Positions 6,437 to 7,879 of a stretch of DNA of 64,000 nucleotides are shown here, piece by piece. Numbering within the stretch: the first letter of the stretch is position 1; every line of letters starts with the position of its first letter. Where the stretch lies: positions 5,362 to 69,361 of the forward strand of contig CAVOMI010000007.1 in assembly GCA_963696975.1 (NCBI GenBank), written 5' to 3'. This DNA is from an uncultured Actinomycetes bacterium (GTDB lineage Bacteria > Actinomycetota > Thermoleophilia > Gaiellales > Gaiellaceae). A model generated the notes under the pieces. It was given only the letters and a program-made list of their open reading frames with translations, was not told the origin of the DNA and did not search any database. The position numbers and the translations under genes are program-made.

Positions 6437-7879
6437 TTAGAACTGGGCCTGGACTCCCACGCCTCCCTGCAGGCCTAACGTGTGGGTATGTGGGTGGACG
6501 TCTGCTGGCAGGTTCGACCCGGGTGTGCCGAGGTACTGGTAGACGACCGTGCCGTTCACCACGAGGCTGAACCAGCTGACCGTGACGAGGATCTGGCCGC
6601 CGGCTCCCCCTTGCGCGGCGAAGCCGAGGAAAGCCTGTCGGTTGGCGCCGGGTGCGGTGGCCCAGGTGGCGCCGAGGCCGAGACCGATCTGCGCGTAGAC
6701 GCTCGCCTGCGCGCTGGCCCAGGGGCCGCCCAACAGGCGGAAGTCCCGCCCGAGTGGGGTCACCGCCGCGATCTGGTATTGCACGAGCGCGTTTTGGAAC
6801 CAGTCGGTGTTCCCGCTGCCCAGGTCGAAGAACGAGCCGTTCAACGAGAGTTGATGCTCGACTCCGCCGAAGCCCTGGCGGTGGGCCTGGTATGTCCGGC
6901 CGATCGAGAGTGAGAGTGGATTCGTCAAGCGGCTCGCGATCGGCTGGTTGGATGCGAGCGCCACCGTGGGCGTCCAGAGCAGCTGGACCGACGTGTTCCA
7001 CGAGGTGGGTCGTATCGCGGCGACCTTCTCCTGGTAGTACTGCCATACCTGCATCCAGACGTTGCTTCGCTGCACTCCTGCGTCCGTCTGGTGCAGCACT
7101 TCGTAGGTGTCGTCGGTGATCTGGTCGAGCGTCCAACGCAGCCCGATGTAGGCAGCGTGATAGGGCGGTGTCGTGTCTATCACCAGTGGCACGTCGAAGT
7201 GTTCCTGATCGAGCCAGTTGCGTACCCGGGTGCGCAGATCGGGCGCAGAGGCCGGCTGGTTCTGATCGGGCGCCCTCGTAGCCGCGGGATTCCGAACCTC
7301 GTCGGTCGAGCGCGGTGCGGGAGGGGTCACGTTCTGCGTCGCGGGCACCCCGCGTGCCTGGCAGTACACGAGGTCGCTCGCGGCCGTCGCGCAGAGCGGG
7401 CCTGTACCTCGTGCTTCTCGCTCGGCAGCAGAGTCGTACGCTGCCACGCCGCGCGGCGGGCTAGCCGCGCTGCGCTGTTGCGCCACGTGGATGAGTTCGT
7501 GCTGCAAGAGGTCGTTCCCCCGCTCGCTTCCAGGGCGGTAGCGGTCGGCGGCAAAGCCGATCTTGCCGGCGAAGGTGAAGGCGTCTGCGTCGAGGTCGTT
7601 GGCTGCGAGCGACGCCAGCGGGCCATCGAGGATACGTAGAGGTGCTGGGTCGACGGTGCCCAGGCCGCGCGCCGTAGCCCGCTCGGCGGACGACAGCGCT
7701 CGCCCGGGCTGCTCGAGGGCAGCTGCGGCTGAAGCCGGCAGCGGCCGGATGCCTCGTTGGGTCGGCGAGGCTGCGGATGCGCGAGGCGTGGGCGGGCTTC
7801 GCCGCACGGCTGAGCTGGGGCGAGGGGTGCGACTGTCGCGAACGGCCTGGGGCGGTGCGAACGCTGGGCTCATCCTCAA
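6437..7879 (-). CDS. DUF4157 (eCIS-associated HExxH) domain protein with a beta-strand-rich, barrel-like C-terminal domain; candidate CIS cargo
   Basis: 480 aa. The N-terminal half carries the DUF4157 pattern ...ADAFTFAGKIGFAADRYRPGSERGNDLLQHELIHVAQQR. The C-terminal ~250 aa has 8-10 alternating amphipathic strands rich in G/Q/T/S and ends ...GLQGGVGVQAQF. TTG start at 7879 overlaps the upstream stop (TTGA); an alternative ATG is at 7873. Confidence 0.8.
   Translation of the reverse strand: MRMSPAFAPPQAVRDSRTPRPSSAVRRSPPTPRASAASPTQRGIRPLPASAAAALEQPGRALSSAERATARGLGTVDPAPLRILDGPLASLAANDLDADAFTFAGKIGFAADRYRPGSERGNDLLQHELIHVAQQRSAASPPRGVAAYDSAAEREARGTGPLCATAASDLVYCQARGVPATQNVTPPAPRSTDEVRNPAATRAPDQNQPASAPDLRTRVRNWLDQEHFDVPLVIDTTPPYHAAYIGLRWTLDQITDDTYEVLHQTDAGVQRSNVWMQVWQYYQEKVAAIRPTSWNTSVQLLWTPTVALASNQPIASRLTNPLSLSIGRTYQAHRQGFGGVEHQLSLNGSFFDLGSGNTDWFQNALVQYQIAAVTPLGRDFRLLGGPWASAQASVYAQIGLGLGATWATAPGANRQAFLGFAAQGGAGGQILVTVSWFSLVVNGTVVYQYLGTPGSNLPADVHPHTHTLGLQGGVGVQAQF

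Follow-up and report, generated by a model that had tools for sequence, protein, structure and literature searches.

In a 64,000-nucleotide stretch of DNA from an uncultured bacterium of the Gaiellaceae (contig CAVOMI010000007.1 of assembly GCA_963696975.1; this whole stretch is here called the window), a gene close to a cluster for a contractile injection system (CIS) encodes a 480-residue protein in which a DUF4157 module is joined to a C-terminal domain predicted, by modelling, to fold like a small outer-membrane barrel. The domain would probably behave like such a barrel as well. By its domain make-up the protein is of the DUF4157 cargo class. It may be injected cargo of the adjacent CIS, with its barrel inserting into the membrane of the target cell, a proposal that on the models and the gene context is held here with belief and doubt in about equal parts.

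Anatomy and predicted fold of the protein

The gene, referred to below as the barrel gene, was picked out in a sequence-only reading of the window. The open reading frame (ORF) that it placed at 6437–7879 is real: it has exactly these limits, is on the minus strand and specifies 480 amino acids. Its start codon is a TTG at 7879. An in-frame ATG is two codons downstream, and it is this ATG that the start of the database twin of the protein (P0001, 478 aa) matches. The GC content of its third codon positions (GC3), 0.81, is typical of real genes in the window (68–73% GC). Matches to the window were found in soil metagenomes only. In a soil metatranscriptome (run X5), two contigs of 151 nt that are 97–98% identical and span 7351–7630, in the DUF4157 and linker part of the gene, are weak evidence that a near-identical gene is transcribed in soil, with carry-over of DNA another possible source of the two contigs.

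The first 75 residues are 66% Ala, Arg, Pro and Ser, a content that, on composition only, is compatible with disorder. No hydrophobic core of a signal peptide is present in the first 70 residues, where the 12-residue hydropathy maximum is 1.05. The DUF4157 module that follows had been proposed from the letters alone and is genuine, since residues 76–138 score 53.3 bits with Pfam PF13699 (eCIS_core, formerly DUF4157; eCIS, extracellular CIS), for which the cut-off is 22, at an E value of 3.2e-14. The peptide that had been quoted from this half of the protein, AFTFAGKIGFAADRYRPGSERGNDLLQHELIHVAQQR, is present in it. So is the HExxH motif, in the form HELIH (residues 127–131, at 7487–7501), and among DUF4157-bearing relatives a HEL.HV.Q motif is retained. 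For the C-terminal domain (residues 212–480) neither the single sequence nor a profile gave a sequence match in Pfam, NCBIfam or the PDB (the PDB was searched by phmmer and hmmsearch with 9- and 23-sequence profiles), and tblastn of the domain against 72,556 plasmids found nothing.

With an alignment of 23 diverse family sequences, AlphaFold2 (AF2) models the C-terminal domain at a pLDDT of 91.8 and a pTM of 0.81, and all five models are at 89 or above with the same topology. With a 9-sequence alignment the prediction is weaker (best pLDDT 77.7; 48.8–77.7 across five models). The predicted strands are residues 293–310, 322–332, 339–350, 363–381, 387–407, 415–434, 437–451 and 464–479. The sequence-only reading had envisaged a barrel-like domain of about 250 residues with 8–10 strands. 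Its barrel fold is borne out by AF2 and Foldseek and eight strands are predicted, but the barrel is confined to 188 residues (293–480). Residues 212–292 are, in the same models, a separate small alpha/beta subdomain that is rich in helix (three helices and a hairpin) and 22% charged.

The structure prediction and Foldseek search that had been suggested as a check on the barrel leave outer-membrane barrels as the sole class among the top 50 PDB matches (NspA, OmpA, Ail, OprF, OmpX and TtoA, at 10–14% identity). At the head of these is NspA (1p4t; TM 0.58, E 8e-5), and the Foldseek probability is 1.0 for NspA, OmpA, Ail, OprF and OmpX. Lipocalin, avidin, fatty-acid-binding protein (FABP) and other soluble barrels are absent from the 50. 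The fold of the beta-type pore-forming toxins (beta-PFTs: haemolysin, aerolysin, MACPF/CDC) is absent from them and also from the top 50 matches in the viral library, which returned phage-encoded models described as 'outer membrane protein beta-barrel'.

The membrane character of the barrel was judged from sequence statistics, the controls being two proteins of E. coli K-12, the barrel of OmpA and mature OmpX. Just 5.9% of its 188 residues are charged, Lys is lacking altogether, Gly makes up 13.8% and Gln 9%, and the grand average of hydropathy (GRAVY) is +0.12; the controls have 17–18% charged residues and a GRAVY of about −0.55. Across the family the charged fraction of the barrel is 3–12%, far below that of soluble proteins and below that of true outer-membrane proteins (OMPs). 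In the 23 aligned members the strand positions alternate between two classes of column, one occupied by A/V/L/I/F and the other by polar or small residues. The hydrophobic columns are the more variable (entropy 1.80 versus 1.18 for the polar/small ones; Mann-Whitney p 5e-5) and have next to no charged residues (0.1% versus 3%). Subdomain 212–292 shows the reverse, soluble-type pattern, with 1.17 for hydrophobic versus 2.29 for polar columns (p 1.6e-5). As read from the alignment, a conserved polar face combined with a variable, charge-free hydrophobic face is as predicted for a lipid-embedded barrel and is the opposite of that for a soluble one.

The invariant polar or small positions of the barrel are G339, N363, Q369, Q397, G401, G419, Q423, G427, Q429 and G475, and Glu341 is kept in 20 of the 23 members. 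The invariant Gln, Asn and Gly would line the lumen, which may be closed. An enzymatic role like that of PagP, OmpT or OMPLA was considered and rejected: invariance is limited to Gly, Gln and Asn and extends to none of the His, Ser or Asp positions. The hydrophobic alternation in strands 5 and 6, with nine to ten alternate positions, exceeds the usual length of an outer-membrane span.

The aromatic terminus noted from the letters is present, the protein finishing ...QGGVGVQAQF. In each of the 23 aligned members the barrel is closed by Phe or Trp, and in 20 of them nothing follows this residue (the other three have tails of 1, 2 and 8 residues). The terminal frames of the family, ...GVGVQAQF and ...LGVSYAF, resemble those of OmpX (...GVGYRF) and OmpA (...GVSYRF).

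In common with NspA, the N-domain of OmpA, OmpX/Ail, the N-domain of OprF and TtoA of Thermus, the predicted barrel is an eight-strand antiparallel meander with a dyad pattern of hydrophobic and polar residues. Like these barrels it is Gly-rich and has a terminal ...G-x-G-x-x-x-F. Unlike OMP barrels, it is fused behind a cytoplasmic cargo module without a signal peptide, has about threefold fewer charges, and would have invariant Gln and Asn lining its lumen in place of charged networks. A role as the producer's own OMP was therefore set aside, the domain being fused behind DUF4157 and lacking a signal peptide; because of the latter, export by Sec and assembly as an OMP of the producer are unlikely. 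With alpha-haemolysin, aerolysin and MACPF/CDC the likeness would be in the toxic end state, a beta-barrel in a foreign membrane. These beta-PFTs are secreted as soluble monomers that each give one hairpin to an oligomeric barrel, whereas here a complete single-chain 8-strand barrel is predicted.

Relatives, their loci and the cargo class

The family is rare. Of 5.8 billion clusters examined by a word-indexed search, 9 proved to be relatives, and an exhaustive profile search of 1.84 billion proteins gave 33 representatives (clusters). The relatives are 26–80% identical and their genomes span several phyla. The pattern is not due to chance, because it is conserved in the 33 clusters, from genomes of 47–71% GC, and is accompanied by the high-confidence model described above. 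Among the 23 aligned relatives 13 have eCIS_core, which is the sole Pfam family matched by any member.

Of the DUF4157-type loci examined, 7 of 10 are CIS-adjacent. One (L001) repeats the order in the window: fibre, DUF4157, BTAD, small ORF, barrel gene. In two others (L012 and L013) the barrel gene is immediately upstream of BTAD, (small ORF), sheath and tube. In the metagenome-assembled genome (MAG) of a member of the Acidobacteriaceae (L002), a DUF6519 gene is followed by three tandem DUF4157 genes, of which the second encodes the barrel protein and the third has a CdiA_C toxin. In two loci of a metagenome lineage of 47% GC (L014, with its array at 7310–13665, and L015, to which L016 is identical) CIS_TMP and AAA+ genes are followed by four or five tandem DUF4157 genes. 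The first two of the four tandem eCIS_core genes of L015 (7506–14986) both carry the barrel, 32% and 42% identical to that of the window, which, as judged by these sequences, shows duplication of the barrel effector type within one array. The earlier suggestion of a CIS payload is strengthened by this context, with relatives in tandem DUF4157 effector arrays and a CdiA_C toxin fusion in one of them.

A branch with about 28% identity (P0036, P0041 and P0042) lacks DUF4157. It has instead an unrecognised N-terminal domain of about 110 aa, and in three loci (L004, at 9569–14397, L006 and L007) its gene is convergent to a module of VgrG, PAAR and a small ORF. The PAAR protein is 381 aa with a faint anthrax-lethal-factor-like match (E 0.039), and the accompanying ORF is 99–128 aa. 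Because of the DUF4157 arrays and these VgrG-PAAR neighbourhoods, the barrel domain occupies the 'variable toxin' slot of two different contractile-injection contexts.

DUF4157 is a core marker of eCIS and is usually N-terminal to toxin domains (PMC8213781, Geller et al. 2021). In the Algoriphagus system, AlgoCIS, cryo-electron tomography and mass spectrometry showed that the lumen of the tube is filled by two DUF4157 proteins, Cgo1 (498 aa) and Cgo2, which are released when it contracts (PMC8894135). The barrel protein is like Cgo1/Cgo2 and the eCIS-associated toxins (EATs) in its low-complexity N-terminus, PF13699 with HExxH, linker and variable C-terminal effector domain, and also in being encoded at the edge of the CIS cluster, often in tandem, and in its size, close to that of Cgo1. 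It is unlike the EATs in that its C-terminal domain is a predicted membrane-type barrel with no Pfam family and not a deaminase, ADP-ribosyltransferase, nuclease or protease.

There is also a likeness to the pore formers of type VI secretion systems (T6SS), VasX/TpeX, Tse4, Tse5 and Ssp6/Tpe1. These effectors act on the target membrane and reach it by a contractile machine, and one barrel branch adjoins VgrG-PAAR. Tse4, Tse5 and Ssp6/Tpe1 are alpha-helical or of glycine-zipper type and are usually accompanied by a membrane immunity protein. TpeX/VasX is a colicin-like alpha-PFT (bioRxiv 10.64898/2026.08.24.746647). The barrel of the family is unlike them in being all-beta and in having no evident immunity gene. 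The barrel protein has no colicin or MIX match in Pfam, and the sole helices of its C-terminal domain are the three of the charged subdomain. No barrel-type CIS or T6SS effector was found in the literature searched, a limited full-text collection.

The injection cluster and neighbouring genes in the window

A CIS does adjoin the gene, as had been noted: the structural cluster is on the same strand, with the barrel gene at its fibre end and a second DUF4157 protein close by (Table 1). Among annotated CIS the nearest is that of a Streptomyces plasmid, with a sheath 52–54% identical and a collinear cluster that likewise has a DUF4157 gene at its end. For MMPL from the window the best matches are in Actinomycetota, and the window has SARP and LuxR regulators. 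A monoderm actinobacterial host, as supposed in the sequence-only reading, is plausible on such sequence matches.

Table 1. Coordinates of the barrel gene, the parts of its product and neighbouring features in the window
Feature	Coordinates	Strand	Residues or length	Basis and remarks
Barrel gene, whole ORF	6437–7879	−	480 aa	Stop at 6437–6439; candidate DUF4157-type CIS cargo with predicted barrel C-terminal domain
N-terminal region	7655–7879	−	1–75	Candidate disordered loading sequence; composition, hydropathy
eCIS_core / DUF4157 domain	7466–7654	−	76–138	Pfam PF13699
Ala/Pro-rich linker	7247–7465	−	139–211	Composition; length and sequence vary across the family
First subdomain of C-terminal domain	7004–7246	−	212–292	AF2 secondary structure, composition, column entropy
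Predicted 8-stranded antiparallel barrel	6440–7003	−	293–480	AF2, Foldseek, composition, conservation
Last strand with terminal motif ...LGLQGGVGVQAQF	6440–6490	−		Resembles C-terminal beta-signal of OMPs
70-aa ORF	7876–8088	−	70 aa	TGA stop overlaps TTG start of barrel gene (TTGA)
SARP/BTAD-type regulator	8116–9327	−		PF03704, E 5e-18
Second eCIS_core/DUF4157 protein	9048–10589	+	513-aa ORF	PF13699, E 1.4e-23
Contractile-injection structural cluster	~10850–30452	−		Same strand as barrel gene
DUF6519 fibre	10850–13312	−
Baseplate proteins (P2-I-like, baseplate-J-like)	13313–18396	−
GPD-like hub	21427–22614	−
AAA+ ATPase	23615–26440	−
gp19-type tube	28007–28501	−
Sheath	28503–30452	−

The second eCIS_core protein, encoded divergently from the BTAD gene, is on its sequence a candidate for a second cargo. 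Its C-terminal half is, by eye, rich in Glu, Lys and Ala, unlike the barrel. The start of its ORF is uncertain, the counterpart in L001 being 365 aa. The real start of the BTAD gene is probably near 8850–8950, because its relatives are 238–246 aa and tblastn covers residues 175–394.

A toxicity test with and without the 70-aa ORF had been suggested. The ORF is not a specific partner of the barrel gene, as it tracks the BTAD regulator. It is conserved (71% identity in L001 and 38% in L012), has no family match, and a role as dedicated chaperone or immunity partner was rejected, given that it is also missing from L002 and L015. The BTAD gene and an ORF of 66–72 aa form a conserved pair in the window, L001 (9000–10004) and L012 (2497–3424), with small ORFs that are 38–71% identical. 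In the window and L001 the gene downstream of the pair is the barrel gene, whereas in L012 it is the sheath gene. Judged by this distribution, the small protein could be a co-regulator of CIS operons, or its gene a leader gene in them. Regulators of the GerE and BTAD kinds have been reported to be typical neighbours of eCIS (PMC8213781). A scan of 6100–9400 for promoters and terminators found nothing, and neither in the window nor in L001, L002 or L015 was an immunity-like gene seen downstream of a barrel gene.

Some observations concern the rest of the cluster and its surroundings. The AAA+ ORF is listed as 941 aa with its AAA domain at 731–855; its relatives are 483–637 aa, an ORF at 25516–26640 (−) overlaps it, and on the Streptomyces plasmid the AAA+ gene is preceded by a separate DUF4255 gene. 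Judged by these lengths, the 941-aa ORF probably merges upstream sequence and has its real start later. Upstream of the sheath gene are a GrpB-family gene (30434–31138, +), a 744-aa ORF (31267–33501, −) without a match in Pfam or NCBIfam, and a DUF1501/DUF1800 gene pair (33871–36593, −). A LuxR-type regulator with AAA_16, TPR and GerE (41289–44195, +) is about 11 kb from the cluster, and the CIS locus of the Streptomyces plasmid (L010) is also near a LuxR-family regulator (6335–8959).

Proposed action, competing explanations and meaning

Potentially, the protein acts in four steps, of which three are modelled on characterised DUF4157 cargo and the last on the anatomy described here. The Ala/Arg/Pro/Ser-rich N-terminus would serve as a loading sequence, by analogy with AlgoCIS cargo, where a disordered N-terminal domain is needed for loading and DUF4157 is dispensable (bioRxiv 10.64898/2026.05.27.728243). 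The DUF4157 module would have the accessory or adaptor role that is usual for it in cargo of this class; a DUF4157 protein of Streptomyces binds spike components (PMC13277306). The chain would then pass unfolded along the tube lumen and be expelled on contraction, and in AlgoCIS an AAA+ protein probably unfolds the cargo (bioRxiv 10.64898/2026.05.27.728243). On reaching the target cell, the C-terminal 188 residues would, if the models are right, fold into an 8-stranded OMP-like barrel within a lipid membrane. The outcome would be disturbance of the membrane barrier, or anchoring of subdomain 212–292 at the target membrane. When unfolded, OmpA, OmpX and other small OMP barrels enter bilayers and fold there spontaneously, and a barrel of this kind would thus suit delivery in unfolded form.

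Several points weigh against this proposal. The TM-scores to real OMPs are 0.5–0.58 only. In hhalign the family profile matches the E. coli OmpX and OmpA barrels with a probability of less than 1%, and homology to any OMP family was detected neither by sequence nor by profile (Pfam over 24 members, NCBIfam, PDB and hhalign). On these comparisons the protein is not a member of any OMP family, and the structural match is, at the level of models, one of fold class and not of detectable homology. In three of the loci (L003, from an Eremiobacterota MAG, L005 and L011) the flanks that are available contain no CIS gene. An 8-strand barrel that is tightly packed and lined by Gln does not have to conduct ions and may have no pore. 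Finally, as CIS of the Streptomyces type fire inside the producer, the target may, by analogy, be the producer's own membrane.

This last point is the core of one rival, in which the CIS fires in the producing actinobacterium, like CIS-Sc, and the barrel enters the cytoplasmic membrane of the producer, with cell death, lysis and release, or attachment of the particle as the result. Streptomyces CIS are cytoplasmic, fire inside the producer to cause cell death and need the membrane protein CisA (PMC10066040, PMC12237407). With the nearest annotated CIS being the collinear one of a Streptomyces plasmid, a SARP/BTAD gene just upstream as regulator and no immunity gene, the window has features that would fit. 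Yet its DUF6519 gene indicates binding of an external target, DUF6519 being eBAP5, the baseplate anchor of tail fibres (PMC12923769), and the same barrel is present in Acidobacteriaceae, in the 3′ effector arrays of eCIS of 47% GC and beside VgrG-PAAR, where an external target is the norm. Action on the producer is considered unlikely. A similarly low probability is given to another possibility, that the cargo is delivered as proposed but its beta-signal-like end is recognised in the target, by the machinery for beta-barrel assembly (BAM) of diderms or by the outer-membrane translocase and the machinery for sorting and assembly (TOM/SAM) of mitochondria, which would then install the Gln-lined barrel or choke on it. 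Bacterial OMP barrels that reach the host cytosol go to mitochondria (PMC12757748), and BAM and SAM share the logic of the beta-signal (PMC8292188). The closing Phe or Trp of every aligned member and the G-x-G-x-x-x-F frame would be consistent with such recognition, as spontaneous insertion would need no such precision, and the lack of an immunity-like gene after the barrel genes fits a target structure that is absent from the producer or harmless to it. The resemblance is, however, one of motif alone, the terminal Phe could be a structural need of the last strand, and some producers are diderm (the Acidobacteriaceae MAG) and would need protection.

The remaining rivals concern the domain itself. 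That the barrel is never in a membrane, and is a soluble or oligomeric up-and-down barrel, a module for binding of ligand or lipid, or a scaffold for residues 212–292, is quite improbable. The subdomain, other subunits or the lumen of the tube could shield its hydrophobic surface; the pTM of the model suggests a fixed arrangement of subdomain and barrel, the long hydrophobic runs of strands 5 and 6 exceed the typical outer-membrane span, and a binding role is possible since no residues of catalytic type are conserved. Against this are the lack of soluble barrels among the top PDB matches, the low charge throughout the family and a conservation pattern inverse to that of the soluble subdomain. 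It is very improbable indeed that the barrel is an artefact of prediction on an amphipathic sequence rich in Gly and Gln, with a disordered or amyloid-like real state. The Gly and Gln contents and the weaker 9-sequence models would allow it, but the 23-sequence models are uniformly of high confidence with one topology, and a defined fold is favoured by the fact that Gly, Gln and Asn are invariant at particular positions although the relatives diverge so far.

The family is absent from Pfam as well as rare, and is a candidate for a new domain family. Among the classes of eCIS cargo that can be recognised, the main one is that of the DUF4157 proteins, in which the C-terminal domains known are enzymes. 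Those pore-forming effectors of contractile systems that were found described are alpha-helical, as is documented for VasX/TpeX. Should the barrel protein indeed be injected and insert into the target membrane, a single-chain OMP-like barrel as payload would be a new toxin principle, folding only on meeting a membrane and so suited to a narrow tube. Should the assembly machinery of the target be involved, it would be a CIS effector that hijacks barrel biogenesis, and a producer without an outer membrane would need no immunity. The choice between self-insertion and use of BAM/SAM by injected barrels would become directly testable, and the domain would provide a compact membrane-inserting cargo for engineered injection systems.

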